Assembly: GCA_001029675.1 (NCBI GenBank)
Contig: CP011210.1
Span: 581,663 to 645,662 of the forward strand
Length of the DNA stretch: 64,000 bases
Origin: Candidatus Beckwithbacteria bacterium GW2011_GWC1_49_16
GTDB lineage: Bacteria; Patescibacteriota; Microgenomatia; UBA1400; CG1-02-47-37
Direction of reading: 5' to 3'
Part shown: positions 9,813 through 63,651 of the stretch, in pieces
How the letters are laid out: every line of letters begins with the position of its first letter
How positions within the stretch are numbered: position 1 is the stretch's first letter
Program-made: the position numbers and the translations under genes
The notes under the pieces: generated by a model
What the model saw: only the letters and a program-made list of their open reading frames with translations
The model's database searches: none
What the model was told of the DNA's origin: nothing

Positions 9813-9824
9813 TGACGATCGTCA
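9813..9824. other. perfect 12-bp palindrome TGACGATCGTCA in the 30-bp spacer between convergent genes
   Basis: Flanked by the short inverted repeat CATAACA/TGTTATG. Possible bidirectional terminator or protein-binding site. Confidence 0.3.
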
Positions 9825-9833
9825 CTCAAATTG

Positions 9834-25721: not shown

Positions 25722-25738
25722 CGATTATAATTATAGAC
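25722..25738. promoter_or_regulatory. 17-bp divergent intergenic region with a palindromic TATAAT-type box (ATTATAATTATA)
   Basis: The entire spacer between a minus-strand ATG and a plus-strand GTG is cgattataattatagac. Confidence 0.35.
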
Positions 25739-28796: not shown

Positions 28797-28801
28797 AGTC
28801 T

Positions 28802-29581: not shown

Positions 29582-29604
29582 CGATATTATACTAGGATTA
29601 GCTC

Positions 29605-48199: not shown

Positions 48200-50391
48200 T
48201 CCCCTTCTTCTTCAAAGTCGATCTCGTTATCTATCAGCTGGTTGTCTTTGAAGATAAACTCTTTGCGGGGGAAAATTGGTTTTTTCAAGTAAGAAGCCAA
48301 GCCGATGTGGTTGTCGCTAATGGTATTGCCGCTGATTTCCGGCTGGCTTGAGTCTTTAACTGCTATACCCATGTTGCAGTTTTTGAAGGTGTTGCCGGTA
48401 ACTTTGGGGCTGGCGGTTTCACCTAAAGACAAACATTTGTCGCCGGCACCGTCAACCAGGTTGCCGGTTATATCGGGGGAGGCCGAACCAAAATCCATGC
48501 CGTCGTTGCCGTTTGATAAAAATCTGTTGCCGGCAACCAGTCCGGTGGCAAAATCGAGATCCAAACCGTCAAAATCGTTGTCGGCAAAAATATTGTTGCT
48601 AATGCTGACGTCGGCGTACTTGACGTTTAGGCCGTCGTCGCCGCGGTTGAAGCGAAAAGTGCTGCCGCTGACTACAATATTGTCGGCGCCATGGGCAGCC
48701 AAAGCGCCGCTAAAGTAAGCGCCGTTGACTATGGCCTCGCTGCCGTACTCGACCGTTACCCCGTTAAAGCTACTGCCGTTGGCTGACTCTCCCAAAACGG
48801 CAAAAACGCCCCAAGGTTTGTCTGGGTCTTGGGTGGTTAAAGTGGCCCCATTGGCGGTGACCGGGCTCAAGCTGACAAACGAGGCTCCCTCGGCAAAAGA
48901 CAGTCTGGCGCCGGGCAGAAGCCTAACCTGGTAGCCGGGAGGAATAACTCTGGTTTGATTGATTAAATGGGTGCCGGGGCCGAAAGTGAGTTGCTTAGGC
49001 GTCAAAAACAGCTGGTCAAAATCCGCAAACTCTGACTCGATGACGCTTTTGGCCGGGTCGGCGACGTCGATTGGCTCTGTAACCGGCAAAGGAAAACCGC
49101 TGACTTCATCGGGAAGGCTGTCTGAGTCAAGTTTTTGTTGAATTAATTGAAACTGGCTAATTAACTCTCGGCGGGTTTTTTCAAGCTGGCGCAAATAGCC
49201 GATGTTGGAGAAAAACTTTTTATAATCCTGAAAGACGGCGGTTTTGGTTTGGGCTGCCAGTTGGTCGTAGTATGCCAAATCATCTGCCAGGTTATCGGGA
49301 TTGTTGACATAAGCCGCCAAGATCTGGTTTCTTTTTGCCAGCCAGTCGGGATTTTTTAACACCCGGGAAGCTAAAGGATGATAGTTGGCCGGCCAACCCA
49401 CTCCCCCCAAGACGTCCCAGGGCATAACCATAAATTTGCCCAGGGCCGGATGCCAATATAAACGAAAATTGTGTAAGTGATCTTGATGGATGCTGCCCAT
49501 GAGTACCGAGTGCGCCTGCCAGGCAATAAAGTTATCGATATCCAAAATATAAGGCAAGCGGGTAAAAAACTCCTCGTCGGAAACGTTATTTAACAAATCT
49601 AAAAGCAAACTCAACTCGGTGTAGTTATCCTCGGCAAAAACTTCGTCCTGGCTGTACTTGCGCCAGAACTTTAAAGAAGCAAAGATGGGTTGTTGTTCCG
49701 CCAGCCTTACTTCCTGGTCGATTTCACCATAGAGATTGCCAATCGGCAAGTCGTTTTTTTCCAGAAAAGCCTCGTTCCACTGCTCGGTTTGCCAATAAAC
49801 TCCTTCGGTTTGGCCGTTAACTTTTAAAACCACGAATCGACTTTCGGGCACAATCAGCCCCATTTTTTTAGCCCGGTAGTTTGATAGTTCCTCAAGATAC
49901 ATGCCCCGATCTTCAGGGATAATCAAGTTAATGGCCGTCTGGCCAAAAAAAGGCTGGCCAGAACCAAAGTTAACTCGCCAAGATTTTTTGGGCCTGGTCC
50001 AGTGATCAAAATCGACGCCGCGGTAGCGCACTCTAACTTGATACTGTCTCCCCTCAAAATCGAAGCTGGCGGGGACAAACTGTTTGAACTTGTCGGCCAG
50101 AATGCCGCCGGTGGCCTTGGGGTCAGGCAGGTTGCGGTTCAAAAAAACATAGTCGTCCGGATTGAGAGTCAGTTCATAAACCGGCAACCCTGATGATTTA
50201 AACCAATAAGGCAAATAGAAAACGTCGGTCAATTTGGTTAAATAGGTGACGACGTTAGTTTGCCAACCAAAAGCGGTGGGGTTGTGGATTTTAATTAAAT
50301 AGATCAAACCCACAACGAGAATAATTGCTGTATACAAGAACAGTTTAAATCTATTTTTCATAGAAGCTAATTCCCCACTGTCGGCGTTCAA
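48187..50391 (-). CDS. CotH kinase-fold domain fused to C-terminal parallel beta-helix (PbH1) repeats; N-terminal TM anchor
   Basis: 734 aa. EGVYWQTEQWNEAFLEKNDL and HQDHLHNFRLYWHPALGKFMVMPWD (CotH). C-terminal repeats ...NGNDGMDFG...GNTFKNCNMGIAV...GNTISDNHIGLA. Confidence 0.75.
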   Translation of the reverse strand: MNADSGELASMKNRFKLFLYTAIILVVGLIYLIKIHNPTAFGWQTNVVTYLTKLTDVFYLPYWFKSSGLPVYELTLNPDDYVFLNRNLPDPKATGGILADKFKQFVPASFDFEGRQYQVRVRYRGVDFDHWTRPKKSWRVNFGSGQPFFGQTAINLIIPEDRGMYLEELSNYRAKKMGLIVPESRFVVLKVNGQTEGVYWQTEQWNEAFLEKNDLPIGNLYGEIDQEVRLAEQQPIFASLKFWRKYSQDEVFAEDNYTELSLLLDLLNNVSDEEFFTRLPYILDIDNFIAWQAHSVLMGSIHQDHLHNFRLYWHPALGKFMVMPWDVLGGVGWPANYHPLASRVLKNPDWLAKRNQILAAYVNNPDNLADDLAYYDQLAAQTKTAVFQDYKKFFSNIGYLRQLEKTRRELISQFQLIQQKLDSDSLPDEVSGFPLPVTEPIDVADPAKSVIESEFADFDQLFLTPKQLTFGPGTHLINQTRVIPPGYQVRLLPGARLSFAEGASFVSLSPVTANGATLTTQDPDKPWGVFAVLGESANGSSFNGVTVEYGSEAIVNGAYFSGALAAHGADNIVVSGSTFRFNRGDDGLNVKYADVSISNNIFADNDFDGLDLDFATGLVAGNRFLSNGNDGMDFGSASPDITGNLVDGAGDKCLSLGETASPKVTGNTFKNCNMGIAVKDSSQPEISGNTISDNHIGLASYLKKPIFPRKEFIFKDNQLIDNEIDFEEEGDYRL

Positions 50392-51391
50392 AAAAGTGAG
50401 CCAAAATTATAGCAATTAGATTAGAACAGATGAAAGAAAAAATAACAAGATTTAAAGCCTTGGCTGAATTGATAAAAAGAAGAATAAAGGCATTGACGGT
50501 GTAATGAGTCAAATAAAGAGTTAAAGAATAACCGGAAAGCCAACGGAAAAGCTTATTTAGACTGAAACTGGTTTTGACTACTCTTGATTGCAGGCCGGCA
50601 ATGATAAAATAAAATCCCAGTGCTAAGAGAATAAAAAAAGTTAGTTCATATTCTACTTTGGTTTGCCAAACACGGCGCATGGCCAGCAGCCAAAAAATAA
50701 TTCCGCTTGGATACGCAATGATGGATTTTAATTTACTAAAAGTGTTTTTTGATAAAATGAAGAAAATAAGTACGCCCAAGAGCCAAACAGCCACTAAGCC
50801 CTTGCCTCTGCCAGCAAAAAGACTATAGATAGGAATAATACTAAAAAAAGTCAGGACAAGAAAAAAAATCAGTGGTTGTTTTTTAATCACTTTTGGGGCG
50901 AGAGTAAGCCAGCCGAAGCTTAAATAGGCCCACCACAATAAAGGCAACGCCCAAAAAGGTCTTCCAGAACCAAGGGAAATCGAAGGAAAATATTGAAGCA
51001 TCAGAAGATTAGTTATTAATGTTTTGAGATTAAAAGCCTGGGCGTAACGGTAAACTTCCGGATGAAAGACAATTGACAACCCGTCTAGGATAATCACTAA
51101 AATAATTGCTGGTAAAAAAACAGAGTAAATTCTGAAAAACCTATGGGCAAAAAAGTTGGCGAATCGATAATCACCGACTTGTTTTTTTGAGAAAGTGCTA
51201 AGAGGAATTAGCAAACCAGAGATGAGAAAAAAGAATACTACAGCAATGTTTTCTACATAAGGCAGATTGGGGGGAGCTAGATAAAGATATTGCTGGTGAG
51301 AGTGGATTAAGTGTCCAAAAAGAACTGCTTGGGCAGCTAAAAAACGTAAAAAATATAAGAAGGTTGAGGCGGCCGGTGAAAGTGTCAACAT
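50351..51391 (-). CDS. acyltransferase family 3 (membrane O-acyltransferase)
   Basis: 346 aa with about 10 TM helices and the N-terminal FLRFLAAQAVLFGH (R...H) AT3 motif. Confidence 0.6.
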   Translation of the reverse strand: MLTLSPAASTFLYFLRFLAAQAVLFGHLIHSHQQYLYLAPPNLPYVENIAVVFFFLISGLLIPLSTFSKKQVGDYRFANFFAHRFFRIYSVFLPAIILVIILDGLSIVFHPEVYRYAQAFNLKTLITNLLMLQYFPSISLGSGRPFWALPLLWWAYLSFGWLTLAPKVIKKQPLIFFLVLTFFSIIPIYSLFAGRGKGLVAVWLLGVLIFFILSKNTFSKLKSIIAYPSGIIFWLLAMRRVWQTKVEYELTFFILLALGFYFIIAGLQSRVVKTSFSLNKLFRWLSGYSLTLYLTHYTVNAFILLFINSAKALNLVIFSFICSNLIAIILAHFFERRQWGISFYEK

Positions 51392-51412
51392 GTTTGATTA
51401 AGTGATACAATA

Positions 51413-52471
51413 ATGACAATTATAATGAAAGTGCAGGAAAAAATCTTAAAAATTATGGCGGAACACCCTACGTTTATCATCGCCGAGGCGGGATCCAACC
51501 ACAACGGCGACGTCACCCAAGCGGTCAAACTGATCAGGGCCGCGGCTGACGCGGGGGCTGACGCGGTTAAGTTTCAAACTTTTACTGCTGGGCAGTTAAC
51601 GACAAAAAGTGGGCCGAGCGCTTCCTATCAAATAAAAAACACTAAAATAAAAAGCCAGTGGCAATTGCTTCGCTCAATCGAGTTAGATTATAAATGGTAC
51701 AACAAGCTAGTAAAACTCGCCAAAAAGTTGGGCATTATTTTTTTGTCTACCCCGCATGGATATATAGAGTCTGTGAATTTTTTAAAGGATAAAGTGCCCG
51801 CTTGGAAGACAGGTTCTGGGGACTTAACCAATCTTCCACTATTAAAATACTTAGGTGAGTCTGGCAAACCGATAATTTTGTCGACCGGGATGGCGACCGT
51901 CGCCGAGACCAGAGAAGCGGTTAAGACCATTGAAAAGACCGGCAACAGAAAAATTACCATTCTTCACTGCACCACTAACTACCCTTGTCCGCCTGAAGAA
52001 GCCAACGTGGCGGCGATTATGGATCTTAAAAAAAATTTCCCCCGCTACCGGATCGGCTTTTCTGACCACACCCTGGGGATGACGGCGGCGATCATGGCGG
52101 TGGCTTATGGGGCGGCGGCAGTGGAAAAACACCTCACCCTGGACAGAAACTTGCCCGGGCCGGACCAGAAAAACTCGCTTGAACCCGACGAGTTTAAACA
52201 AATGGTGAAGCAAATTAGGTTGGCAGAAGTTTTACGCGGCAGCGGCAAGAAAAGGCCTTTCCCCAGCGAGCTGATTATCGCCCAAATGGCCAGAAAAGCG
52301 GTGATCGCCGCGGTAGACATTACCAAAGGCACCAAGATCACCGCAGCGATGCTGACGATAAAAAGGCCGGCCAAAGGCGGTTTGGCGCCAAAGATGCTCG
52401 ATAACATCGTGGGCAAAACGGCCAAACGAAGCATCAAGGCTGACTCACAACTGAAAAAAGGTGATTTTTGA
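51413..52471 (+). CDS. nonulosonic acid synthase (NeuB/LegI/PseI family, with C-terminal SAF domain)
   Basis: FIIAEAGSNHNGD signature of N-acetylneuraminate-synthase-family enzymes. Confidence 0.85.
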   Translation: MTIIMKVQEKILKIMAEHPTFIIAEAGSNHNGDVTQAVKLIRAAADAGADAVKFQTFTAGQLTTKSGPSASYQIKNTKIKSQWQLLRSIELDYKWYNKLVKLAKKLGIIFLSTPHGYIESVNFLKDKVPAWKTGSGDLTNLPLLKYLGESGKPIILSTGMATVAETREAVKTIEKTGNRKITILHCTTNYPCPPEEANVAAIMDLKKNFPRYRIGFSDHTLGMTAAIMAVAYGAAAVEKHLTLDRNLPGPDQKNSLEPDEFKQMVKQIRLAEVLRGSGKKRPFPSELIIAQMARKAVIAAVDITKGTKITAAMLTIKRPAKGGLAPKMLDNIVGKTAKRSIKADSQLKKGDF

Positions 52472-53541
52472 TGGTAGGGGGGAATTTTGCATTTGAGTTT
52501 GCGGCTCTTGCCAGGAAAGAAGTAAGGTTAAACCTGCCACAAACCTCAAGCTATTGGTTTCAGAACGGCCGAGGAGCAATTGCCGGGTTAATTAAACTTT
52601 TAAAGCTTAAACCAGGAGACGAGGTGTTGGTGCCTGAATACCACTGCGAAGAAGTGACCAAGCCTTTTTTCAACCGAGGGATTAAATGTAACTACTACCG
52701 GATTGATAAAAACCTAAGCATAAGGCTAAAAGAGATCAAAAAACAGGTGAGTGATAAAACCCGTCTGGTGGTGGTGATTACTTTTATGGGTTTTCCCCAA
52801 GAAGAAAGGGAGGAAATTGTTAAGTGGTGTCAGAAAAATAAGCTGGCGCTTTTGGAGGATAACGTGCCTATCGCCCGGGATAAAATCTCGCCCCGCCCGG
52901 GGGCCTTCCAGATATACAGCTTCAGAAAACACACCGGAGTGGTCGGTGGAGCGGTCTTAGTTTTACCCCGCGGCAAAAAGAAAAGTGACTATCCAACCTT
53001 AGAATTTTTGCCGGCTAAAGCCACTGCGGAAATATTTCAGCTAGCGGCAGCGATGTCCAGGTTTTTATCGCAAGTGATACCAATAAAGATTTTGTGGCTT
53101 GTCACCTACAAGCTTCACCGGCTGGGTGAAGATTTGCTGGACGATGAGATCAGAGGCGCTTCGAAGTTGTCGAGGTTTTTAATCATAAGAGCTGGCTGGC
53201 AGAAAATAATACAGAAGAGACAGGCCAATAGCGGCTATTTAACCGAAAGGCTTATAAAAGCCGGGCTAAAGCCTTTGATTAAAAAAGTGCCCCCCAAGGC
53301 GACGCCTTTGATGTTGCCGGTGGTGATCGACAACCCGGAAAGAGTCAAACAAAAATTGAGAACTCGGGGTTTATTTGTAACTCAGTTCTGGCACCTACCT
53401 AAGTACTTGAATAAAAGGTTGGCGCCGACGGCAGACTGGATTACCAAGCATGTAATTTACTTAACCGTCGACCAAAGATACGGGGAAAAAGAGATGGAAC
53501 TCCAGGCAGTAACCTTGGCTCGTGTTAAAATAAACCCATGA
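52468..53541 (+). CDS. divergent DegT-like PLP-fold protein; function unknown
   Basis: LKPGDEVLVPEYHCEEV...LALLEDN...IYSFRKHTGVVGG parallels the DegT fold topology but is degenerate. Confidence 0.4.
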   Translation: MMVGGNFAFEFAALARKEVRLNLPQTSSYWFQNGRGAIAGLIKLLKLKPGDEVLVPEYHCEEVTKPFFNRGIKCNYYRIDKNLSIRLKEIKKQVSDKTRLVVVITFMGFPQEEREEIVKWCQKNKLALLEDNVPIARDKISPRPGAFQIYSFRKHTGVVGGAVLVLPRGKKKSDYPTLEFLPAKATAEIFQLAAAMSRFLSQVIPIKILWLVTYKLHRLGEDLLDDEIRGASKLSRFLIIRAGWQKIIQKRQANSGYLTERLIKAGLKPLIKKVPPKATPLMLPVVIDNPERVKQKLRTRGLFVTQFWHLPKYLNKRLAPTADWITKHVIYLTVDQRYGEKEMELQAVTLARVKINP

Positions 53542-54596
53542 GGCTGGCTTATCTTAGCGGGACCAGGGCCGATTTTGGTTTGATGAGGACCCTTTTGAAA
53601 AAAATAGAAAAAGAGTCCAAATGGCAGCTTAAGCTGATGGTGACGGGGATGCATCTGATGGATGAGTTTGGCTATACCGTTTCTGAAGTGGATAAACAGT
53701 TTAAGGTAGCCCGGGTAATCGAGGCGGTTTTTACTAAAGACGATCGGGAGTCTATGGCCCGGTTTGTGGGCCGGTGTTTGACCGGAGTGACCGAGGCTTT
53801 GATTAAACACCAGGCTGACGTGGTGATAGTTTTGGGTGATCGGGGCGAACAACTGGCCATGGCGACAGCGGCGGCCTACCTTAATATACCCATCGTCCAC
53901 CTTCATGGCGGGGAGGAAACGACGACGGTGGACAACAAAGCCAGAAAGACCATTAGCCAACTAACAGACTGGCACTTGCCGGCAAGCCAAGGGGCGGCCA
54001 AAAGGCTGACCGCCATGGGGGTAGATAAAAAGAAAATTACCGTGGTCGGGGCGCCGGGACTGGACGAAATCAGACACCTGCCTCAGGCGGGGAAAAAAGA
54101 CCTGATCGTGGTGCTTGAGCATCCGGACGAAAACGAAGCCCAAGCCGGAGAACAGGTAGAAAAGACGCTCTCGGCGGCGGTAAGCTTTGGTTTACCGGTA
54201 AAAGTGATTTACCCTAACGCCGACGCCGGCGGCAGAAAAATGATTGTGGTAATAGAAAAATTTGTAGCCAAATACCCAAACTTGGTTAAAAGTTATAAAA
54301 GCATCACCAGGGAAGACTACCTTAAGCTTTTGGGGCAGGCGAAGGTCTTGGTGGGCAATAGTTCCAGCGGCTTGATCGAATCCCCGGCTTTTAGGCTGCC
54401 AGTGGTCAACGTCGGCCCGAGGCAAAAAGGCCGGGAGCGGGCCAAAAACGTCATCGACGCGGGGTATGACCAAAAGGAAATCAAGGCGGCGGTCAACAAA
54501 GCTTTGAAAATGAAGTTTAAACAGATTACCAACCCTTATGGCGACGGTAAAACTGCCCAAAGGGTGGTAAAATTTCTTAATCAGACCTTTTTATGA
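53538..54596 (+). CDS. UDP-N-acetylglucosamine 2-epimerase (hydrolysing), NeuC/LegG-like
   Basis: LAYLSGTRADFGLMRTLLKK...LKLMVTGMHL matches NeuC-family N-termini. Confidence 0.8.
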   Translation: MRLAYLSGTRADFGLMRTLLKKIEKESKWQLKLMVTGMHLMDEFGYTVSEVDKQFKVARVIEAVFTKDDRESMARFVGRCLTGVTEALIKHQADVVIVLGDRGEQLAMATAAAYLNIPIVHLHGGEETTTVDNKARKTISQLTDWHLPASQGAAKRLTAMGVDKKKITVVGAPGLDEIRHLPQAGKKDLIVVLEHPDENEAQAGEQVEKTLSAAVSFGLPVKVIYPNADAGGRKMIVVIEKFVAKYPNLVKSYKSITREDYLKLLGQAKVLVGNSSSGLIESPAFRLPVVNVGPRQKGRERAKNVIDAGYDQKEIKAAVNKALKMKFKQITNPYGDGKTAQRVVKFLNQTFL

Positions 54597-54991
54597 GTCG
54601 ATTTAATAATTGGCAAGAACCAGAGTTTGACGCTCGCGGCATGACCCGCTGGCAATGGATTTGCCAGCATCACCAGAATTTAAAGCTGGGGGAAGGTAGC
54701 GACATTGGCGCTTTTAGCTACTTAAACGCCAAGCACGGGGTGGAGATTGGCGAAGAGGTGCAGATCGGCAGCCACGTCAGCATTTATTCGGAAAATACCA
54801 TCGATAATACCCATGGTAGAGTGGTGATTAAAAAGGGTGCCAAGATCGGCAGCCACTCGGTGATTTTCCCCGGAGTGACCATCGGCGAGAAAGCGGTGGT
54901 GGGGGCATTTAGTTTGGTCAAAAAAGACGTGCCCGCCGGGGCGGTAGTGGCCGGAGTGACGGCTAAGCCGCTTGAGCGGCGTAACCGGTAA
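54593..54991 (+). CDS. hexapeptide-repeat N-acetyltransferase (LegH/PglD-like)
   Basis: 132 aa; LbH repeats (IGEEVQIGSHVSI, IGSHSVIFPGVTIGEKAVVGA). Confidence 0.7.
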   Translation: MSRFNNWQEPEFDARGMTRWQWICQHHQNLKLGEGSDIGAFSYLNAKHGVEIGEEVQIGSHVSIYSENTIDNTHGRVVIKKGAKIGSHSVIFPGVTIGEKAVVGAFSLVKKDVPAGAVVAGVTAKPLERRNR

Positions 54992-55015
54992 ACAGTAATC
55001 GGTAATCAGTAATGA
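54988..55015. repeat. tandem heptanucleotide repeat (GTAAnCn) x4, ending in the ATG of the gene at 55012
   Basis: gtaaaca gtaatcg gtaatca gtaatga. Confidence 0.7.
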
Positions 55016-56151
55016 AACAACGAATCAATCAAATACCCAAAAAGCAGATTTTACTCGGGCCGCCGTATTTGACCGGCGACGAAGTTAAGGCGGTGGTAGG
55101 AGTAATTAAAAGCGGCCAATTGAGCTTGGGCGAACAAGTAGAAAAGTTTGAGAAAGAAGTGGCTCGATTCGTCGGTGCCCGCTACGGGGTGGCTACTTCC
55201 AGCGGCACCACCGCCTTGCATTTGGCGGTCAAGGTGGCCGGCATAGGTTACGGCGACGAAGTGATTACCACGCCGTTTTCTTTTGTGGCCTCGACTAACT
55301 GCTTTTTGTATGAAGGGGCTACCCCAAAGTTTGTCGATATCGATCCGGACAGCTTTAACCTTGACCCAAAAAAAATTGAGGCGGCGGTAACCCGCAAAAC
55401 CCGCGCCATTTTAGGGGTGGATATTTTCGGCTATCCGGCAGAATGGAAGAAAATAGCCCAAATCGCCAAGAAACACCGGCTTAAAATAATTGACGACGCG
55501 GCCGAGGCTTTGGGGGCGGTCTACCGCGGCAAAAGCTTAGGCAGTTTGGGCTGGCCGACGGTGTTTGCCTTTTATCCTAATAAGCAGATGACTACCGGCG
55601 AAGGGGGCATGGTGGTGACCAACTCCAAAGCAGAGTTTATTAAGTTTAAAAGCTTGGTCAACCAAGGCAGAGCGGGTGATATGCAGTGGCTAAAGCATCC
55701 CAGCCTGGGATATAACTACCGCATGACCGAGGTGGCGGCGGCCATGGGCAGAGCCCAGCTTAAAAAACTTAAACAATTTTTAGCCAGCCGCCGCCAAGTG
55801 GCTGTTTGGTACGGCCAAAGACTGGCCAAAGTTCCGGGGGTAAATTTAATTAAAGCCAATGATAAGCAACACGTCAGAAGCTGGTTTATTTATGTGATCA
55901 GACTTGACAAAAAGTTGAACCGCGACCGGGTAATAAAAAAATTATTGGCGGCGGGCGTACCGGCCAAAGCCTACCTGCCCTCGATTCACCTTCAGCCCTA
56001 TATGAGACGTTTTGGCTACAAGCGGGGCGACTTTCCGGTGAGTGAGGCGGTATCGGCCTCAACTCTGTCACTGCCTTTTTATACAGGCATGGAAGAGGCG
56101 GTAGTAGATCGCGTTTGTGAAAAATTAAAAAAAGTAATCGGTAAACTGTAA
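55012..56151 (+). CDS. DegT-family PLP-dependent sugar aminotransferase (LegC/PseC-like)
   Basis: AFYPNKQMTTGEGGM PLP-lysine motif. Confidence 0.8.
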   Translation: MKQRINQIPKKQILLGPPYLTGDEVKAVVGVIKSGQLSLGEQVEKFEKEVARFVGARYGVATSSGTTALHLAVKVAGIGYGDEVITTPFSFVASTNCFLYEGATPKFVDIDPDSFNLDPKKIEAAVTRKTRAILGVDIFGYPAEWKKIAQIAKKHRLKIIDDAAEALGAVYRGKSLGSLGWPTVFAFYPNKQMTTGEGGMVVTNSKAEFIKFKSLVNQGRAGDMQWLKHPSLGYNYRMTEVAAAMGRAQLKKLKQFLASRRQVAVWYGQRLAKVPGVNLIKANDKQHVRSWFIYVIRLDKKLNRDRVIKKLLAAGVPAKAYLPSIHLQPYMRRFGYKRGDFPVSEAVSASTLSLPFYTGMEEAVVDRVCEKLKKVIGKL

Positions 56152-56168
56152 TCAGTAAACCGTAATTA
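56134..56168. repeat. tandem heptanucleotide repeat (GTAAnCn) x5, followed by degenerate copies up to ATG 56185
   Basis: gtaatcg gtaaact gtaatca gtaaacc gtaatta. Confidence 0.7.
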
Positions 56169-56184
56169 TTGTAGAATAGTAATT

Positions 56185-57225
56185 ATGAAGCACAAGGCGA
56201 TTGATAATAAAAGCATTCTAGTCACCGGAGGAGTGGGTTCGATCGGAGCGGTGCTGGTTGACCAGTTGATAAACGAGTTTTCGCCCAAGCAGGTGAGAAT
56301 TCTCGACAACAACGAAGCCGGACTTTTTGAAGCGACTCGAAAGTACCAAAAAAAGTCCCAAATGAGGTTTATGCTGGGGGATGTCAGAGATAAAGACCGG
56401 GTGACTTGGGCCTTAAAAGGGGCCGATACGGTTTTTCACGCAGCCGCTTTAAAGCATGTCGCCTTAAATGAGTATTCCCCTTTTGAGTCAGTTAAAACTA
56501 ATGTAGTTGGCACGCAAAACCTAATTGAAGCGGCTTTGAGTAATAACATAGAAACATTTATAAATATATCCACCGATAAAGCCGCCAATCCAACCAGCAC
56601 CATGGGGGCTTCAAAGTTACTAGCGGAAAGGCTGACGTCCGGAGCTGATTATTTTAAGGGCGGCGGCAGAACGGTGTTTGCTTCGGTGAGATTCGGTAAT
56701 GTACTGAATTCTTCCGGGTCGGTGATCCCGATCTTTTTGGACCAAATCAAAAATGGCGGACCGGTAACCATCACTGATAAGAGAATGATTCGGTATTTTA
56801 TGAGCATCAAAGAAGCAGTTAAGTTGATTTTAAAAGCGGCCGAGATGGCCCGCGGCGGCGAGGTGTTTATTTTGAAAATGCCGGCTTTGAAAATTTTGGA
56901 CTTGGCTCAAGTTTTAATTGAAAAGGTGGGTAAGGGAAAAGTAAAAATAAGCGCAATCGGTCAAAAACCGGGCGAAAAACTGTTTGAAAAAATCGTCACC
57001 CGTACCGAGGCAGAACAAACCATGGAGCTTGAAGACATGTATGTTTTACCTCTATCAATCGATTATCCTAATTATCCGGGAATGAGCGGAGACGTAGTCA
57101 AGGAAAGTTATCGATATTACCGAAAACTGGGGGGTAAGAGTGTCCCCGAAGAAGGGGTTGAGCCCAAAAAACTGCTGACTAAAGCAGAAATAGTTAAGTT
57201 GTTAGTTCAGGACAACTTACTGTGA
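56185..57225 (+). CDS. nucleotide-sugar 4,6-dehydratase (PseB/LegB/CapD family)
   Basis: ILVTGGVGSIGAVLVDQL. Polysaccharide-biosynthesis CapD-type short SDR. Confidence 0.75.
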   Translation: MKHKAIDNKSILVTGGVGSIGAVLVDQLINEFSPKQVRILDNNEAGLFEATRKYQKKSQMRFMLGDVRDKDRVTWALKGADTVFHAAALKHVALNEYSPFESVKTNVVGTQNLIEAALSNNIETFINISTDKAANPTSTMGASKLLAERLTSGADYFKGGGRTVFASVRFGNVLNSSGSVIPIFLDQIKNGGPVTITDKRMIRYFMSIKEAVKLILKAAEMARGGEVFILKMPALKILDLAQVLIEKVGKGKVKISAIGQKPGEKLFEKIVTRTEAEQTMELEDMYVLPLSIDYPNYPGMSGDVVKESYRYYRKLGGKSVPEEGVEPKKLLTKAEIVKLLVQDNLL

Positions 57226-58043
57226 AGTTTGTCATTGTTGGTTTAGGATCGATCGGGAGTAAACACCGGAAAAACTTAGAATCGCTGGGACACCAGGTAG
57301 TCCCCTGCCACCGCGACGACGACCTGGATAAACTGATTGCAGCCAGCCAGCCAGACGGGGTTTTGGTTTGTACTCCAACCAGCCTTCACTTAAAACCGGC
57401 CCTAACCGCTCTCAATCACCGGCTGCCGATATTTATCGAAAAACCCCTTTCCCATAATCTTGACGGAGTCGACCGACTGCGCGGTAAAATTCTGGTTGGC
57501 TACTGTCTTAGGTTTGATAAAAAATTAAGGCAATTAAAACAACAAGTCGATCAGTTGTCGCCGGCTAAAATCAAATCGGTTAAAATCGTTGCCAAAAGCT
57601 GGCTGCCGGACTGGCATCCGGACGAGGATTACCGCCAAAGCTATTCGGCCAAAAAAGCTTTGGGCGGCGGGGTGCTTTTGGATTTGTCGCACGAGATCGA
57701 TTATGCCTTGTGGTTTTTCGGACCGGTGAAAAAAGTTTCTGCCAAGCTCGAGCAAGCGCCGGAGCTTAAAATAGAAACCGAAGCCGTCGCTGACTTAAAT
57801 CTGGAGTTTAATTCAGGAGTTAAGGCAGACATTCACCTTTCCTACGCCAGCCGGGAAAAGGAGCGTTATTGCCAAGTGATCACCGCATCCGAAAGGCTGC
57901 GCTGGGATTTTCAGCCCAATAATGACATGTACTTGGCGGAAATGAAGCATTTTATCGGTGTAGCCACCGGCAAAGAAACACCGCTGGTGACCGCAGCCGA
58001 CGGCCGGAGAGTGCTCGAAGTAATTGAGGCGGCCAAACTATGA
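57222..58043 (+). CDS. Gfo/Idh/MocA family oxidoreductase (PtmF-like)
   Basis: MKFVIVGLGSIGSKH N-terminal Rossmann motif. Confidence 0.65.
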   Translation: MKFVIVGLGSIGSKHRKNLESLGHQVVPCHRDDDLDKLIAASQPDGVLVCTPTSLHLKPALTALNHRLPIFIEKPLSHNLDGVDRLRGKILVGYCLRFDKKLRQLKQQVDQLSPAKIKSVKIVAKSWLPDWHPDEDYRQSYSAKKALGGGVLLDLSHEIDYALWFFGPVKKVSAKLEQAPELKIETEAVADLNLEFNSGVKADIHLSYASREKERYCQVITASERLRWDFQPNNDMYLAEMKHFIGVATGKETPLVTAADGRRVLEVIEAAKL

Positions 58044-58912
58044 AAGGGTCTATCTTGGGTTTTGTGGTGCTGGAGGCAGGAACAACCCTGCTGATGAAAC
58101 AACTCTTGAATTTGGCCATTCACCCTTACTTTGTGGTCTTGGTCAGCGGCCTGGCAGCTTCAGCGCTAATGGCAGTAGCTTTTTGGCGTCAGCCGAGCTT
58201 TAAAAAGGAACTGTTAAATCTTAAAGTGATAAAATCTATCTGGCCGACGGCAGTGTTTATTACTCTAGGCAACTTATTTGGCTTTGCGGCGCTTAAACTA
58301 ACTAGGGCGACCAATTACATCCTTTTGGCCAGAACCAGCGTGCTTTTGAGTCCGATTTTAGCCTGGCTGATATTAAGAGAAAAAGTTAATCATAAAATCT
58401 GGCCCTTGGTGGCAAGCGTGCTTTTGGGCATCTGGCTTTTGACCGGCGACTGGAGGCTGATATTTAACCTATCCGGTGATAGCCTAGCAGCGCTAACGGC
58501 TTTGACGATTTCTTTGGACTTTATCTGGCAAAAACGAGCCATGATTAAAGTTCCCTTAGAATTAATGGCTTTTTGGCGGCGGTTGTTATCGGCAATTTTG
58601 GTGGGAGGCATTTGGCTAGTAACTCCCCAACTGGGACAAACCAGCTTCCACTTTACTGGTTTAGGAGGCATGGCGTTGGGCTTTGCCGGAATGTCATTTT
58701 TTATGGCTCGGGCACTAAAAGTCCAAGCGGTGGCTGAATTTAACTTACTGATAAACTTGTCACCAGTCTTGGTAGGACTATCCGCCTACTTTTTGTTTGG
58801 GGAAAGGTTGAGCGGCGGGCAATTGGTAGGAGCGGCGTTTATTATTGGCTCTTTAGTAACCTTTAACTTGATAAAGAAACAAGAAAGCCTTAAGCTCAAG
58901 GCAAAGAGATGA
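58040..58912 (+). CDS. EamA/DMT family transporter
   Basis: 290 aa, about 10 TM helices in two EamA-like halves. Confidence 0.55.
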   Translation: MKGSILGFVVLEAGTTLLMKQLLNLAIHPYFVVLVSGLAASALMAVAFWRQPSFKKELLNLKVIKSIWPTAVFITLGNLFGFAALKLTRATNYILLARTSVLLSPILAWLILREKVNHKIWPLVASVLLGIWLLTGDWRLIFNLSGDSLAALTALTISLDFIWQKRAMIKVPLELMAFWRRLLSAILVGGIWLVTPQLGQTSFHFTGLGGMALGFAGMSFFMARALKVQAVAEFNLLINLSPVLVGLSAYFLFGERLSGGQLVGAAFIIGSLVTFNLIKKQESLKLKAKR

Positions 58913-59595
58913 TTTTAGGCGTAGTCCCCGCCCGGAGCGGCTCCAAATCGATCAAAGACAAAAACATTAAGCCTTTGGCTGGCAAGCCGCTGATGGCCTG
59001 GTCGATTATGGCCGGCCTGGCTTGTAAAAAAATTGATAAAGTGGTGGTGTCAACCGACAGCGGAGACTACGCCGATGTGGCTAAAAAGCACGGGGCTGAA
59101 GTCTTGATGCGGCCAAGTGAACTGGCCCAAGACGCCACGCCGATGATTCCTGTTTTACAGCACGCGTTTAAGGCTTACGCGCCGGCCGAAACGCTGGTGT
59201 TGCTTGATCCCACCTCCCCTTTACGCCTGGTTGACGATATTGAAGCTTGCTTAACCAAACTGAAGCTGCCGGAAACCGACTCGGTAGTGACGGTAACCGA
59301 GGCCGAACACAATCCTTATTATGTTATGGCCGGAGTTGAGAATGATTATTTAAAATACCCGCTGTTTAAACCTGGTAAAGAAATTCACCGCCGTCAAGAC
59401 GCCCCTAAGGTTTACCGGCTTAACGCGGCGGTTTACGCCATTAAACGAAAAGTTTTGTTAAATGGTAAAATCTTTACAGATAAAACTCGGGCGGTGATCA
59501 TGCCGCAAATCCGCTCGTCTCATATAGACCACGAGGTTGACTACCTCTATGCCGAGTTCCTGTTAAAGTCTGGACATGTCAAACTCGATTTTTAA
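58909..59595 (+). CDS. CMP-nonulosonate synthetase (acylneuraminate cytidylyltransferase family, NeuA/LegF-like)
   Basis: ILGVVPARSGSKSIKDKNIKPLAGKPL N-terminal motif. Confidence 0.8.
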   Translation: MILGVVPARSGSKSIKDKNIKPLAGKPLMAWSIMAGLACKKIDKVVVSTDSGDYADVAKKHGAEVLMRPSELAQDATPMIPVLQHAFKAYAPAETLVLLDPTSPLRLVDDIEACLTKLKLPETDSVVTVTEAEHNPYYVMAGVENDYLKYPLFKPGKEIHRRQDAPKVYRLNAAVYAIKRKVLLNGKIFTDKTRAVIMPQIRSSHIDHEVDYLYAEFLLKSGHVKLDF

Positions 59596-60289
59596 TTTAA
59601 AAGATAAAGTGGTACTGATTACCGGAGCCGCCGGAATTCAAGGACCGGAGCACGTCAAGGCGTTTGAAAGCGTGGGTGCCGAGGTGGTGGCGACCGATAT
59701 CAAAGGCACGGAAATTATTCTGGACGTGACCAGTCCCGATTCGATCAACCAAGCGGTTAAAAAAATCATTGATCAACACGGCTATATCGACGTTTTAGTC
59801 AACAACGCCGGGGCGACCGGAAAATATGCCACTGATTGGGAGCAAATCATTAAAGTTAATTTAACCGGCACCTATAACTGCTGTCACATTATCGGCGCTG
59901 CCATGAACCAAGGCTCGATCATTAACGTTAGCTCAATTTACGGTTTGGTGGGGCCAGACTGGTCTGTTTACGACCAAGCCGAGTATGCCGGAAAACCCAT
60001 GGGCGCGCCTGCCGGTTACGCTGCTTCAAAGGGTGGGGTAATTAGTTTGACTCGCTATTTTGCTTCGCTTTATGCCCCGAAGGTCCGGGTCAACTGCGTC
60101 ACCCCCGGCGGCATTTTTGACAATCAATCTGAAACTTTTGTCAAAAAATATTCGGCCAAAACCATGCTGGGAAGAATGGCCAAAAAAAACGAGGTTTCCG
60201 GGACTCTTCTCTATTTGGCTTCCGATTTGTCCAGCTATGTTACCGGAGAAAACATTGTGGTTGACGGTGGTTTGACGGCCAGGGCATGA
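59576..60289 (+). CDS. SDR family oxidoreductase (PtmA-like)
   Basis: VVLITGAAGIQG glycine-rich motif; YAASK catalytic motif. Confidence 0.75.
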   Translation: MSNSIFNLKDKVVLITGAAGIQGPEHVKAFESVGAEVVATDIKGTEIILDVTSPDSINQAVKKIIDQHGYIDVLVNNAGATGKYATDWEQIIKVNLTGTYNCCHIIGAAMNQGSIINVSSIYGLVGPDWSVYDQAEYAGKPMGAPAGYAASKGGVISLTRYFASLYAPKVRVNCVTPGGIFDNQSETFVKKYSAKTMLGRMAKKNEVSGTLLYLASDLSSYVTGENIVVDGGLTARA

Positions 60290-61851
60290 GAAAAGCAACT
60301 TGGTTGATCGCTTTGTCAGCATTAATCTGGGTGGTGGTGGGAATCTACGGAGTTATTTTTAACATCAGCTATATCGACGAGGCTAAATACTTAATTAAGG
60401 GCTGGCTGATGACCACGGGCCAAGTAAGTTACTATAAAACTCCCGAGTTTTTCTACCAACACATGCCCGGGGTTTTTTTGTGGTATGGCCTGGGACAAAA
60501 AATTTTTGGACCGAGTCTTTTGGTAGGCAGGCTTCAGTCTTTTCTAGTAGGATTGATTGTTTACTATTCTAGTTTTGTTCTGGGTAAACGATTAGCCGGC
60601 TACAAGGGCGGAGTGGTAACATTGCTACTTTTGAGTTTGTCTTCGGTGGCGGCCCTTGACTATTCGGCGGCGGTACCGCAGTCGTTGGTGGTTTTGACTT
60701 TGATTATAGGTTTTGTTTGTCTTTACGATGGCTTGGTAAAGGGGAACGAGCCAAGATTTTTTTGGGCCAGTTTCTGGTTTAGCCTTGCCTTTATCGTCAG
60801 AGAGAACTTTTTGTTTACTTTGATCCTCTATGCTGGCTTGCTGGTTTTTGTTTTTAGAGATAAATTTAAACTTTTTTTAAAACATTTGACGGTGATATTG
60901 ATGACTTTGGGAGTATTTATTATTCCCGGCTATCCCGGAACGGTGGCAGTATTAAAAAATTTTCCGGGAGTGAGTCGATTTTTACCGGTCAGCCAAGCCG
61001 AAAAGCAGGTTTTAGCTCTTTATTGGAAAGAGGGCTTACAAACTCCCGGGCTTCACTTCAGGGCAGTAAGAGAGTTTGGGGTAATTTTCCATGCCTGGGC
61101 AGTGATCTGGTTTTTGATCATTTTTGATTGGTTGAGAAAACCTAAAAAAACACCTGCCAGATTTACCCCAAGGCAGTTGTTTTGGTGGTTTTTAGTGGGA
61201 GCAACGGTTTTTAATTTTATTATCCATAGTTGGGCGGCGTTTAAGTTGTCTCCCAGAGCCATTATCAGTTACTTTTCTTATGTTTCTCCCTTGGTGGCAG
61301 TAATTATGGCGGGAATAATCACTCCCAAGCTTAAAAATTTAAAATTTGAACGCTTGGCTCTAGGCGTTTATCTCGGACTACTTGCCTTGGTGCCAGTAGG
61401 ACCACGCTTTGCCCGAATCTTTGCCATTCCGACCAGAAATCCGGATTTGGTAAAAATTGTCAATTCTGCTTCAAAACTTGAACCGCTGATTGAAGGCAAA
61501 GAAAACATCGTCTGGATCGACGAGCCGATTAGCTTGTATCTGGCTGAAAGAGTGTCTTATTATCCGCTGATACACCATACCGGCTTTTACAAATCATCAA
61601 ACGACACGGAAATTGTCAGGAATTTGGGGTTTTGGAATCAGACGATGCTCAATGGCTGGCTCAAAGAAGCTGATCTGGTGGTAGTGGGAGCTAATAAACT
61701 CAAATTATTAAAGGAGGTTCCTGAAGGCAGAAGTCTGGCCAGTTTTATAGAAGCAAAGCTCAATGAAGATTTTGAGTTGATAGAGGAAAGGGTCGATATT
61801 TGGCCTGGCAAGATGGTATTTTATGAACCAAAAACCTTAGAGCTTGAGTAA
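60286..61851 (+). CDS. GT-C membrane glycosyltransferase with C-terminal soluble domain
   Basis: 521 aa. SYIDEAKYLIKGW DE motif in the first loop. Confidence 0.5.
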   Translation: MRKATWLIALSALIWVVVGIYGVIFNISYIDEAKYLIKGWLMTTGQVSYYKTPEFFYQHMPGVFLWYGLGQKIFGPSLLVGRLQSFLVGLIVYYSSFVLGKRLAGYKGGVVTLLLLSLSSVAALDYSAAVPQSLVVLTLIIGFVCLYDGLVKGNEPRFFWASFWFSLAFIVRENFLFTLILYAGLLVFVFRDKFKLFLKHLTVILMTLGVFIIPGYPGTVAVLKNFPGVSRFLPVSQAEKQVLALYWKEGLQTPGLHFRAVREFGVIFHAWAVIWFLIIFDWLRKPKKTPARFTPRQLFWWFLVGATVFNFIIHSWAAFKLSPRAIISYFSYVSPLVAVIMAGIITPKLKNLKFERLALGVYLGLLALVPVGPRFARIFAIPTRNPDLVKIVNSASKLEPLIEGKENIVWIDEPISLYLAERVSYYPLIHHTGFYKSSNDTEIVRNLGFWNQTMLNGWLKEADLVVVGANKLKLLKEVPEGRSLASFIEAKLNEDFELIEERVDIWPGKMVFYEPKTLELE

Positions 61852-63651
61852 CTTGAGAATCTGGTCTGCGGCAGATCTGCCGGCCACGGGCTTAATATAA
61901 TCAGCCGAAATTCTTTTGGCCTTCTGGAGTTGTTTTTTGGTCTGAGACTGATGTTTGTCTAACAGAATTGATAACCACTTCTTAAGCTGACTCATCTGAT
62001 GCACTTCTATTGCGCCGCCGTCTTTAATTATCGGTAGGAAAAAACCGTAATTTTTTTTAAACGGGTTAATGGAAATCACCGGCCGGTTCATCATAATCGC
62101 TTCAAAGATAGTCATCGACCAGGTTTGGAGGACTACGGAGCAGACGTTGAGCAGATCGATGAGTTCCAGTTGATTATTGTCGGAAACGACGGCGTTGGTT
62201 ATCCTCCATTGTTTAAGCTCTTCTAAAACCCGGTAGCGTTTTTCACTGGGATGGGGCTTGATCACCAACGTCATATTTTTAACCTGAGCTACCGCCGATG
62301 ATGCCAGTTTAAAAAAGGCTTCTTTTTCGGGTTTGGGAATCATATGGCTGGGATTGAAAGAAATAAGCAGGGCGATTTTTTGATCATGGTCTAAACCCAA
62401 AGTTTTAAAAACTTTTTTGGCATCAAGCCGTGAAACAGACTGGCTATAGTTTTCGGTTCGGGGATCGCCAACGACTTTAATTCTTTTTGGGGGCAAACCC
62501 AAATTAACCAACTGACGTTTGATAAACTGGCCGACAACGGTGACCGTTTCGGCGGTATCGTAGGCGTTGATCTGGTCCAAAGCCAATAAAGTATTGGGTG
62601 AGGCTAAAAGCGACCTGGTTCTAGTTGACCGGGCGGCTGAAGCCAAGGCTAGCTCGCAAAACCTAACGTCTGACACCACCACTAGGGCTTTAGGCCTGAC
62701 CGAAACAAACAAGTTTTCGGCAGCGGCCAGATAAAACCGGCTTAAAGTTTGGCCTAAATCAATCATCGGGGAGGCGGCAGCCAACCCCAGATTATATAAA
62801 AAATCGCTCAAGCCGGTGACGGTTTTAAGTCTTTTTGGCAAACTGGTTTTGGGGGGCTTAAAGCCTTTGGGTAAAAAGCTGGCTAAGAAAAAATGATTGG
62901 CCGAGGCCAGCTTAAAGTTTTTCAGAATCGGCTCAAGTCTGGCGGTGTCGTCAACCAGCCAGGGATGGCGATTTTTTTTATCAAGGGCTCGGTAGAGGGG
63001 CGCCAAAGTTTTCAGGTGACGGTAATAGTCAAGGCTAAGCAAAGTGCTAAAGCGAAGCTTTTTGAGGGGCGGAGGGGTAACTCGAGATTGAGATAAAAAT
63101 TGGCGGATTTTTTTACTGTACTGGCGCTTGAGAAAGAATTTTTTAAGCCAGTGGTTGAGCCAAACGAAAGTTAAAAAGTGGCATCTAATAGTTTTGACGC
63201 CTCGGGTTTTTCCCAGAAACCGGGCGGTTTGTTCATGGTAGCTGGAACTCAAGGTGACGATGAAATCTGGTTTAGTTTGAGTTAAAACATCCTGATAGAG
63301 TTGGGCATAAACAAAATACTCATAAGTCAAATAGATGGCCAAACGGCTTTTGAATAAATTGGTTGGCATGCCTTGCAAGAGGCGCTCGGTTACTTTTAGG
63401 TGAAGATTGCGGTTGGCAGCGTAATCAAGCTGAGCCAATTTGTCGCCATAATAAAAGACACTGTCACCCCCCAGCTTAAAAGCGTCAGAGGCGACAATGG
63501 TTAGCTTGAAAAATGGTTTGAGAATGGCGACGGCAAGTTTAAGACGGTTTTTAAGCCAACCGACATAAAAAAACCTAAATAACCTCCCCAAAATCCCGGA
63601 CAAGGTCTGGATTTTGATGATGTCTTCGGTAATAATTAAGACGTGCTTCAT
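61837..63651 (-). CDS. TagF/TagB-family (CDP-glycerol glycerophosphotransferase-like, HP-motif GT-B) transferase
   Basis: LVIKPHPSEK and VVLQTWSMTIFEAIMMNRPVISINP match the Glyphos_transf core (KPHP ... DYSS...kPvI). Confidence 0.5.
   Translation of the reverse strand: MKHVLIITEDIIKIQTLSGILGRLFRFFYVGWLKNRLKLAVAILKPFFKLTIVASDAFKLGGDSVFYYGDKLAQLDYAANRNLHLKVTERLLQGMPTNLFKSRLAIYLTYEYFVYAQLYQDVLTQTKPDFIVTLSSSYHEQTARFLGKTRGVKTIRCHFLTFVWLNHWLKKFFLKRQYSKKIRQFLSQSRVTPPPLKKLRFSTLLSLDYYRHLKTLAPLYRALDKKNRHPWLVDDTARLEPILKNFKLASANHFFLASFLPKGFKPPKTSLPKRLKTVTGLSDFLYNLGLAAASPMIDLGQTLSRFYLAAAENLFVSVRPKALVVVSDVRFCELALASAARSTRTRSLLASPNTLLALDQINAYDTAETVTVVGQFIKRQLVNLGLPPKRIKVVGDPRTENYSQSVSRLDAKKVFKTLGLDHDQKIALLISFNPSHMIPKPEKEAFFKLASSAVAQVKNMTLVIKPHPSEKRYRVLEELKQWRITNAVVSDNNQLELIDLLNVCSVVLQTWSMTIFEAIMMNRPVISINPFKKNYGFFLPIIKDGGAIEVHQMSQLKKWLSILLDKHQSQTKKQLQKAKRISADYIKPVAGRSAADQILKLLKL

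Follow-up and report, generated by a model that had tools for sequence, protein, structure and literature searches.

Bacteria make legionaminic acid (Leg) along more than one route. The UDP-linked route of Legionella pneumophila and Acinetobacter baumannii runs through PglF/E/D-like or LgaA-C enzymes and then through NeuC/LegG, NeuB/LegI and NeuA/LegF. In Bacillus subtilis, the sps pathway to Leg (SpsM, C, D, G, E, F) includes SpsM, a soluble PF02719 enzyme with M146 and K150 which is genetically a retaining UDP-GlcNAc 4,6-dehydratase and for which PglF complements (PMC7439481). The Campylobacter-type leg cluster is GDP-linked and combines LegB/C/H/G/I/F with PtmE/F/A; PtmA, LegF, PtmF and PtmE lie side by side in Plesiomonas shigelloides, and homologues occur in Vibrio fischeri, Escherichia coli and Campylobacter (PMC4481668). 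As to the use of the activated sugar, members of the BFO_1060 family of Tannerella forsythia are genetically required for the transfer of derivatives of Leg or of pseudaminic acid (Pse) (PMC5420450). Here we describe a nonulosonate operon in a 64-kb stretch of DNA, hereafter the window, from a groundwater genome of Candidatus Beckwithbacteria, which belongs to the Microgenomates in the Candidate Phyla Radiation (CPR; also called Patescibacteria). The genomes of bacteria in this radiation are very small, and the cells are believed to live attached to hosts; their surface chemistry is little known.

Our main result is that eleven translationally coupled genes on the plus strand (51413-61851), the last of which encodes a GT-C-like membrane protein, form an operon whose product is, as judged from the enzyme families, very likely a CMP-5,7-diamino nonulosonate. 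We consider it likely that these genes encode all steps of a UDP-linked route by which a CMP-activated 5,7-diacylamido-3,5,7,9-tetradeoxy-nonulosonic acid is made, this acid being most probably legionaminic in type, and gene context speaks moderately in favour of the legionaminic configuration of the sugar. The initial annotation of the window had proposed a complete Leg-type pathway in ten plus-strand open reading frames (ORFs) at 51413-60289. The ORF listing agrees with it in coordinates and order, Pfam confirms each domain, and the motifs it quoted were located, FIIAEAGSNHNGD at residue 21 of NeuB, LAYLSGTRADFGL and LMVTGMHL at residues 3 and 33 of NeuC, and VVPARSGSKSIKDKN at residue 5 of the CMP-transferase. 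Completeness was likewise borne out, with six canonical activities recognized in one operon by Pfam, curated models and relatives of solved structure. The ten genes stand, but the end at 60289 had to be moved: because the gene for the 521-aa GT-C-like protein overlaps that for the short-chain dehydrogenase/reductase (SDR) by 4 nt, the operon counts eleven genes rather than ten and extends to 61851. Start and stop codons overlap by 4 nt at seven of its 10 junctions, the overlap amounts to 20 nt at one, and the remaining two have gaps of 20 and 33 nt, a spacing far from the expectation for chance ORFs.

That the gene set is typical of Leg rather than Pse synthesis had been taken from its composition, and this view held up on the 2-epimerase, the synthase and the dehydratase. 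The NeuC-type protein scores well above the equivalog cutoff of TIGR03568 (235.9 bits), with residues 2-347 on model positions 2-365, and among solved structures it matches best the A. baumannii GDP/UDP-N,N'-diacetylbacillosamine 2-epimerase LegG (5xvs/5zlr) with 194 bits, human GNE having 176; the cluster, which possesses this 2-epimerising hydrolase, has neither PseG nor a GNAT/PseH protein. The synthase reaches 391.2 bits on TIGR03569 (NeuB_NnaB; cutoff 399.65), its annotated N-terminus being probably too long, and it is no member of PseI on TIGR03586, with 290.3 bits below the cutoff of 340.25. Its PF03102 domain covers residues 40-280 and the full model, followed by PF08666 at residues 296-350, and the metal and substrate motifs AEAG, TNYP, SDHT, EKH and KRP align with the active site of Neisseria meningitidis NeuB. 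Identity amounts to 44% with the neuB product of a LegB/LegC-annotated cluster, 41% with B. subtilis SpsE, which is also the best solved-structure match (200 bits), 35% with Campylobacter jejuni PseI and 34% with N. meningitidis NeuB; that is, Leg-context sequences give 41-48% and this one reference for N-acetylneuraminate (Neu5Ac) 34%. In a small, context-labelled tree the synthase falls outside the PseI clade, which has a bootstrap of 100%. The tree holds C. jejuni PseI, A. baumannii PsaF (taken from a psaA-F locus), N. meningitidis NeuB, B. subtilis SpsE, CPR and archaeal homologues, and Azospirillum; the characterised references supplied by the PDB were N. meningitidis NeuB, C. jejuni PseI, SpsE and A. 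baumannii LegG, and for this reason all trees are of small size, with gene context as their labels.

The dehydratase bears on the question through its catalytic motif, S-T130-D131-K132 ... M140-G-A-S-K144, where Met replaces the usual SDR Tyr. Among 25 related loci, dehydratases beside a NeuB/NeuC of the window type have MxxxK (L004, L006, L010, L013, L014, L042; in L005 the residue is Leu), and those beside PseI-clade synthases, including A. baumannii PsaA, have NLYGATK like Helicobacter pylori PseB, with the one exception of L015. Overall similarity of the dehydratase had also been considered as a guide to C5 stereochemistry and was dropped, since the catalytic Tyr/Met position separates the contexts better. 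Of the earlier label "PseB/LegB/CapD-type", the membership in the PseB/CapD/PglF family (PF02719) stands and that in the LegB family does not: the protein gets 72 bits on TIGR04180 (LegB) against a cutoff of 475, in a match confined to the N-terminal Rossmann region, and it also misses the cutoffs of PseB (TIGR03589, 302 of 407.75 bits) and FnlA (226 of 730). As the dehydratase is not LegB-type, the route is presumably UDP-linked rather than GDP-linked, and PtmE is therefore not needed; a search for a PtmE-like guanylyltransferase, which the initial annotation had suggested for the genome at large, was run on the 64-kb window and the 10 kb past it and found none. The features of the locus are listed in Table 1.

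Table 1. Genes of the nonulosonate operon and its neighbours, with positions in the window
Feature	Position	Strand	Family matches and remarks
Membrane acyltransferase (Acyl_transf_3), divergent from NeuB	50351..51391	-	PF01757
NeuB/LegI-type nonulosonate synthase, TIM barrel and SAF domain	51413..52471	+	PF03102 292 bits, PF08666
Divergent DegT-like enzyme of the pyridoxal-phosphate (PLP) type	52468..53541	+	Pfam DegT 30 bits, N-terminal third only
NeuC/LegG-type hydrolysing UDP-sugar 2-epimerase	53538..54596	+	Epimerase_2 252 bits, TIGR03568 355.2 bits
Left-handed beta-helix (LbH) acyltransferase, 132 aa	54593..54991	+	Hexapep
DegT-family nucleotide-sugar 4-aminotransferase	55012..56151	+	PF01041 388 bits
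Soluble PF02719 UDP-GlcNAc 4,6-dehydratase, 346 aa	56185..57225	+	PF02719 (Polysacc_synt_2) 337 bits
Short Gfo/Idh/MocA oxidoreductase (PtmF-like)	57222..58043	+	PF01408, PF22725, PF02894
Drug/metabolite transporter (DMT)/EamA permease, accessory	58040..58912	+	EamA x2, weak TPT match
CMP-nonulosonate synthetase (NeuA/LegF/PseF family)	58909..59595	+	PF02348 (CTP_transf_3) 89 bits
Classical SDR (PtmA-like)	59576..60289	+	adh_short_C2; top NCBIfam NF006619 149 bits
GT-C-like (PMT_2) polytopic membrane glycosyltransferase, 521 aa	60286..61851	+	PF13231; 4-nt overlap with SDR
Soluble GT-B-fold protein, 604 aa, convergent with the operon	61837..63651	-	BFO_1060 family and TIGR04396 matches
HisF/WbuZ-type cyclase gene, 5' part (first 109 codons)	63672..64000	+	PF00977

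The remaining three canonical enzymes are recognized as follows. The aminotransferase, a generic member of the DegT family, has its catalytic Lys within FYPNK, and of the solved structures GDP-perosamine synthase matches it best (262 bits), with PglE at 160 and PseC at 150 bits. The LbH protein, whose best solved relatives are the nucleotide-sugar N-acetyltransferases 7s43/7s3u, the FdtD-like 4mzu, WlbB 3mqg and QdtC, is the presumed 4-N-acetyltransferase; it scores 57.5 bits on the NeuD/PglD model TIGR03570 (cutoff 160.8), on model positions 117-202 only, and is without the N-terminal nucleotide-sugar-binding domain of PglD/NeuD/LegH. The CMP-transferase carries PARxGSK and HIDxxxD motifs and has the CMP-NeuAc synthetases of Vibrio cholerae and N. 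meningitidis as best solved relatives; with 140.6 bits on the PseF model (cutoff 205.7, not reached) and at most 44 bits on KdsB models, it groups by sequence with NeuA/PseF, not with KdsB.

We propose the following scheme, in which the enzyme families come from sequence and the substrates and stereochemistry are what we infer from them. The PF02719 UDP-GlcNAc 4,6-dehydratase, with MxxxK like the retaining PglF and SpsM, would act first, the DegT aminotransferase would yield the 4-amino sugar, and the 132-aa LbH protein would N-acetylate it to UDP-N,N'-diacetylbacillosamine (UDP-diNAcBac). The NeuC/LegG-type enzyme would then remove UDP and epimerise C2, the NeuB/LegI-type synthase would join 2,4-diacetamido-2,4,6-trideoxy-mannose and phosphoenolpyruvate, and the NeuA/LegF-type enzyme would form the CMP-sugar. 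For this CMP-sugar the 604-aa GT-B protein is a candidate transferase, and the coupled GT-C protein probably works on the same surface glycan.

Several observations weigh against a legionaminic product. No protein of the operon reaches a Leg-specific curated cutoff, LegC standing at 282 of 420 bits, LegB being missed and NeuB_NnaB falling 8 bits short; in the comparison with curated profiles that the initial annotation had advised, the NeuC/LegG cutoff was passed and those of LegB, LegC, NeuD/PglD, PseB, PseC, PseI and PseF were missed. The aminotransferase scores slightly higher on the PseC model (TIGR03588, 313 bits, cutoff 423.5) than on the LegC model TIGR04181, missing both cutoffs, and by similarity to PDB entries the dehydratase ranks Pen (265 bits) before PseB (235), CapE (218) and PglF (169). 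The MxxxK motif is also found in the 5-inverting enzymes CapE and FnlA, so that C5 retention is not proven. The acetyltransferase, to judge from its sequence, is not of the PglD/LegH type, and N- over O-specificity is what we infer for it. The small tree leaves Leg-type and Neu5Ac-type synthases unseparated, the split which groups N. meningitidis NeuB with the PseI clade having 48% support. Finally, an arrangement of dehydratase, DegT, Gfo, CMP-transferase and SDR genes also occurs in a Chloroflexota contig (L026), there in the neighbourhood of a synthase of the PseI clade, for which reason the Gfo-CMP-transferase-SDR triad is not exclusive to Leg.

Part of this evidence would suit a different 5,7-diamino nonulosonate stereoisomer, for instance 8-epi- or 4-epi-legionaminic, acinetaminic or a pseudaminic-like acid, arising from a C5-inverting dehydratase or from redox epimerisation of one centre by the Gfo and SDR proteins. 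In favour of this, Pen and PseB are the enzymes closest to the dehydratase by overall similarity, the PseC model beats the LegC model for the aminotransferase, a UDP-linked route leaves the conserved Gfo/SDR pair without an assigned step, and in Acinetobacter the oxidoreductase ElaA is linked to 8-epi-Leg (PMC9676051). We nevertheless regard such a product as unlikely, because the PseB cutoff is missed and MxxxK occupies the place of the YxxxK of PseB contexts, PseG and PseH are lacking, the synthase lies outside the PseI clade, and the Gfo-LegF-SDR triad is also met in ordinary Leg clusters. Another explanation divides the operon between two products, CMP-Neu5Ac from NeuC, NeuB and NeuA, and UDP-diNAcBac or a QuiNAc4N derivative for a different glycan position from the dehydratase, the aminotransferase and the LbH protein. 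It is decidedly improbable in view of the contiguity of NeuB-NeuC-LbH-DegT-dehydratase genes across CPR and Bathyarchaeia and of the lower identity of the synthase to the Neu5Ac reference (34%) than to Leg-context sequences (41-48%), even though the NeuC protein passes the model for UDP-GlcNAc 2-epimerase (NeuC_NnaA), the synthase comes close to passing that for N-acetylneuraminate synthase and is not cleanly parted from N. meningitidis NeuB in the tree, and human GNE nearly equals LegG as a match of NeuC. It also speaks against two products that TIGR03568 and TIGR03569 cover LegG/LegI-type enzymes too, PGAP calling genes of a LegB/LegC cluster neuC and neuB.

It might also be argued, from the mosaic character and GC variation of the glycosylation island in which the operon lies and from the related sub-blocks in archaea and diverse bacteria, that the cluster is a passenger without a cell-surface role, newly transferred, silent or in decay. 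With all eleven ORFs intact and translationally coupled, with synteny maintained across several CPR lineages (56-79% amino-acid identity), and with identical sequences in multiple independent assemblies, this is extremely unlikely. We retain the UDP-linked route to a legionaminic-type sugar as our preferred explanation.

The conservation of the locus was surveyed in related contigs. The block of NeuB, NeuC, LbH, DegT, dehydratase, Gfo, CMP-transferase, SDR, GT-C and GT-B genes is syntenic in two independent CPR contigs (L004 and L006) at 40-79% identity, the eight biosynthetic proteins having 56-79%; the SDR, at 79%, is the most conserved protein of the block, the Gfo protein has 61-64%, and the GT-C-like protein, with at least 8 hydrophobic segments, holds the same position at 44-46%. 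NeuB, NeuC, LbH, DegT and dehydratase genes are contiguous in CPR contigs and in one Bathyarchaeia contig. In the latter, a metagenome-assembled genome (L014), they occupy 3881-8478 at 34-53% identity, or 45-53% without DegT, and in Candidatus Naiadarchaeum of the DPANN archaea (L016) a DegT-Gfo-CMP-transferase-SDR-NeuB series lies at 6386-10906 with 40-48% identity; by their sequences, these archaeal sub-blocks suggest that CPR bacteria and archaea have exchanged the cluster. The NeuB-like protein is identical in sequence in assemblies GCA_001774275.1, GCA_001774345.1 and GCA_001774335.1, and the neighbouring 604-aa protein in GCA_001001885.1. NeuB homologues of more than 50% identity are nearly all unnamed metagenomic or Patescibacteria proteins, and a NeuB scan of genome contigs gave 31 mostly distant loci, none of them from an organism with a characterised sugar.

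Some of the related loci deserve separate mention. The CPR contig L010 (8874-16737) has a second type of nonulosonate cluster, with a divergent NeuB of 382 aa without SAF domain (32% identity), NeuC, the divergent DegT-like gene and, in the place of LbH, a FemAB-like acyltransferase, but neither Gfo nor SDR; its product may be an aminoacyl-modified sugar. The 4.8-kb contig CAZVYS010000043.1 (L013), binned as 'uncultured Pseudomonadales', carries a CPR-type block at 46-80% identity, or 63-80% once the Gfo segment at the contig end is set aside, and is probably a mis-binned CPR fragment. Matches to A. baumannii in the plasmids collection were considered as lga (Leg) loci and ruled out, being psaA-F (Pse) loci; one psaA-F locus lies in NZ_CP077849.1 (L012), a nearly unannotated 3.66-Mb A. 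baumannii replicon filed as a PLSDB plasmid.

The Gfo and SDR proteins had been likened to PtmF and PtmA, enzymes which accompany leg genes. A cluster that bears on this is found on the Azospirillum thermophilum plasmid NZ_CP029359.1, where NCBI annotates, in order, LegB, LegC, neuC, an acetyltransferase, a nucleotidyltransferase, a hypothetical protein, a cytidylyltransferase and an SDR, followed by a methyltransferase, a 'surface carbohydrate biosynthesis protein', neuB, a HisF-like cyclase, HisH and an N-acetyl sugar amidotransferase. This plasmid holds the best plasmid-borne homologue of the window SDR, at 41% identity and directly after LegF, and the window Gfo shares 36% identity with the product of the 'hypothetical' gene that lies between LegF and the PtmE-like gene; since this product is a Gfo homologue, the order Gfo-CMP-transferase-SDR is common to the window and A. 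thermophilum. With homologues flanking LegF in the same order in a LegB/LegC-annotated cluster, and with the described neighbourhood of these genes in other bacteria (PMC4481668), the likeness is supported; the comparison behind the two labels was made with the A. thermophilum genes. The published PtmA/PtmF role, with Fru-6-P and Gln, sits badly with a cluster that has a UDP-type dehydratase and is without PtmE. As regards naming, we take PRK09186 to be 'flagellin modification protein A', an assumption for which a literature search yielded nothing in support.

The proposal that the sugar carries an amidino group had rested on the HisF-like gene at 63672 and an AsnB-like gene at 29605, and of these the former is supported. 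On the source contig (L007) beyond the window end, HisF is followed by HisH and then by an opposite-strand N-acetyl sugar amidotransferase of the WbuX type, with 348 bits on TIGR03573 (cutoff 203.2). HisF passes the cutoff of the HisF model (297.3 bits, cutoff 294.55) and misses that of the WbuZ model (275.4 bits, cutoff 299.7); HisH has 230 bits. The trio of HisF, HisH and WbuX also follows neuB in A. thermophilum, HisF and HisH adjoin the block in L004, and the nonulosonate cluster of L005 includes a HisF-HisH fusion gene. By analogy, it is probable that the trio turns one N-acetyl group into an acetamidino group. The AsnB-like gene, in contrast, was ruled out as an amidino enzyme: it is not of the WbuX/PseA type, passes the equivalog model of glutamine-hydrolysing asparagine synthase, and is 22 kb away.

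The convergent 604-aa protein is the best candidate at the locus for a CMP-nonulosonate transferase, with the chances for this role about evenly balanced. It gets 65.5 bits (E 4.6e-18) on NF046086 (BFO_1060), missing the cutoff of 200 and matching model positions 205-353 only, and the matched part is its C-terminal 150 residues, the CMP-binding half of the BFO_1060 family. K465-P-H-P is invariant in 38 homologues, two distant homologues bear PF05159 (KpsC/S Capsule_synth), and the gene is syntenic in L004, L006 and L010. An AlphaFold (AF2) model with a pLDDT of 91.7 has a GT-B fold with helical insertions, for which the top Foldseek matches are UDP-GlcNAc 2-epimerases; a profile search of the PDB gave no significant match, and the fold search gave only the generic GT-B/2-epimerase fold.

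Among the accessory genes, the divergent DegT-like one is unusual. Among 5.8 billion clustered proteins no more than two are closely related to its product, and an exhaustive search for relatives gave 8 with E<1e-30 and 1335 with E<1e-10. D131 and K154, the latter in SFRK (an S-x-R-K motif), are invariant in 40 relatives and align with the PLP-binding Asp and the Schiff-base Lys of sugar aminotransferases, and in Foldseek the AF2 model (pLDDT 95.6) has TlmJ, WbpE, perosamine synthase and ArnB as top matches at TM 0.65-0.72 and 11-16% identity. The gene is missing from the syntenic L004 and L006, and a 44%-identical copy lies right after NeuC in L010. As modelled, it is a nonulosonate-associated, lineage-specific accessory PLP enzyme with the fold of sugar aminotransferases. 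The NeuB-NeuC junction, which it fills in the window (52468-53541), contains an opposite-strand Bro-N gene in L006 (11012-11836), a 94-aa GIY-YIG gene in L005 (11126-11410) and nothing in L004, and it looks like an insertion hot spot. The DMT permease, likewise a lineage-specific accessory, is present in L006 (42% identity) and missing from L004, L010 and L044.

The start of the operon could also be examined. A promoter-like site at 51382-51455 has an extended -10 element that ends at 51411, 2 nt ahead of the annotated NeuB ATG, and NeuB homologues align only from about residue 15-20; on these two grounds the true start probably lies 12 or 42 nt downstream of the annotated one at 51413, that is, at 51425 or 51455, and a start there, leaderless or with a short leader, is more likely than the annotated one. 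Only 21 nt separate NeuB from the divergent Acyl_transf_3 gene, which has the same position in L004 and possibly encodes a glycan O-acetyltransferase.

The rest of the window upstream (1-51400) is a glycosylation island with at least 6 PMT_2/GT-C-like membrane proteins, mostly paired with GT2 proteins, several GT4 proteins, a Wzx-like flippase, an ABC-2 exporter pair (28068-29581), three further DegT aminotransferases (at 32873, at 44637 and elsewhere) and further sugar-modifying enzymes. Three CotH-kinase-like proteins are encoded in it (13431-15089, 41756-43000 and 48187-50391), one of them fused to a right-handed beta-helix/NosD domain, and genes for VTC-domain and DUF4956 proteins (40339-41759) adjoin the second. 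The GC content is 0.39-0.42 at 20001-30000 against 0.45-0.51 elsewhere in the window, which suggests that this segment of the island was separately acquired. Neither tRNA genes nor Rfam matches were found across the 64-kb window.

In the open-access full-text literature we found no paper linking nonulosonic, legionaminic or sialic acid synthesis to CPR/Patescibacteria. The pathway is well known, and what is new, so far as the searchable literature shows, is its taxonomic range and not its chemistry. The operon is complete, conserved and costly for so small a genome, and we predict that some Microgenomates display an acidic sugar of the legionaminic type, probably bearing an acetamidino group. 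The compact UDP-linked enzyme set, with its minimal 132-aa acetyltransferase, could serve the synthesis of Leg analogues. A more far-reaching proposal, which taken jointly we hold to be quite unlikely, is that the CPR coat their surface with a new amidino-modified legionaminic-type sugar whose nature is set by the Gfo/SDR pair, by the DegT-like subfamily and by an unusual delivery route together. In this combination the Gfo/SDR pair would act on the nonulosonate itself rather than in the supply of GDP-GlcNAc, the DegT-like PLP enzymes would be a previously unrecognised subfamily, and delivery would couple the soluble GT-B transferase, the DMT permease and the GT-C enzyme. If it were true, the amidino-modified sugar would be a candidate determinant of recognition between episymbiont and host.

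Compared with the known systems, the operon is closest in its reactions to the UDP-linked Leg route of L. pneumophila and A. baumannii, with which it shares the same six reaction types and, by family, the PF02719 UDP-type dehydratase, the NeuC-type hydrolysing 2-epimerase, the NeuB-type synthase and the NeuA-type CMP-transferase. It departs from that route in its 132-aa LbH acetyltransferase, which is of the QdtC/WlbB class and without the N-terminal domain of PglD/NeuD/LegH, and in its short, soluble dehydratase, nearer to Pen and PseB than to PglF. The sps pathway of B. subtilis (PMC7439481) likewise begins with a soluble PF02719 UDP-GlcNAc 4,6-dehydratase with MxxxK, but uses the GNAT protein SpsD and SpsG where the window has LbH and a NeuC-type epimerase. 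The GDP-linked Campylobacter-type cluster, as exemplified by A. thermophilum, shares the Gfo-CMP-transferase-SDR order, and its proteins are 36-59% identical to those of the window and of the adjacent HisF/HisH/WbuX genes; the window operon, unlike it, has no LegB-family dehydratase, LegC-family aminotransferase or PtmE guanylyltransferase. As to the T. forsythia transferases BFO_1060, TFUB4_00887 and Tanf_01245 (PMC5420450), the 604-aa protein is like them in its C-terminal half, keeps the HP motif and is encoded beside biosynthetic genes, whereas its N-terminal 440 residues are unrelated. Overall, what sets the window apart from the described systems is that its acetyltransferase is minimal and not of the PglD type, that its dehydratase is short, soluble and of the MxxxK kind, and that it has an additional PLP enzyme, a DMT permease and a coupled GT-C gene.

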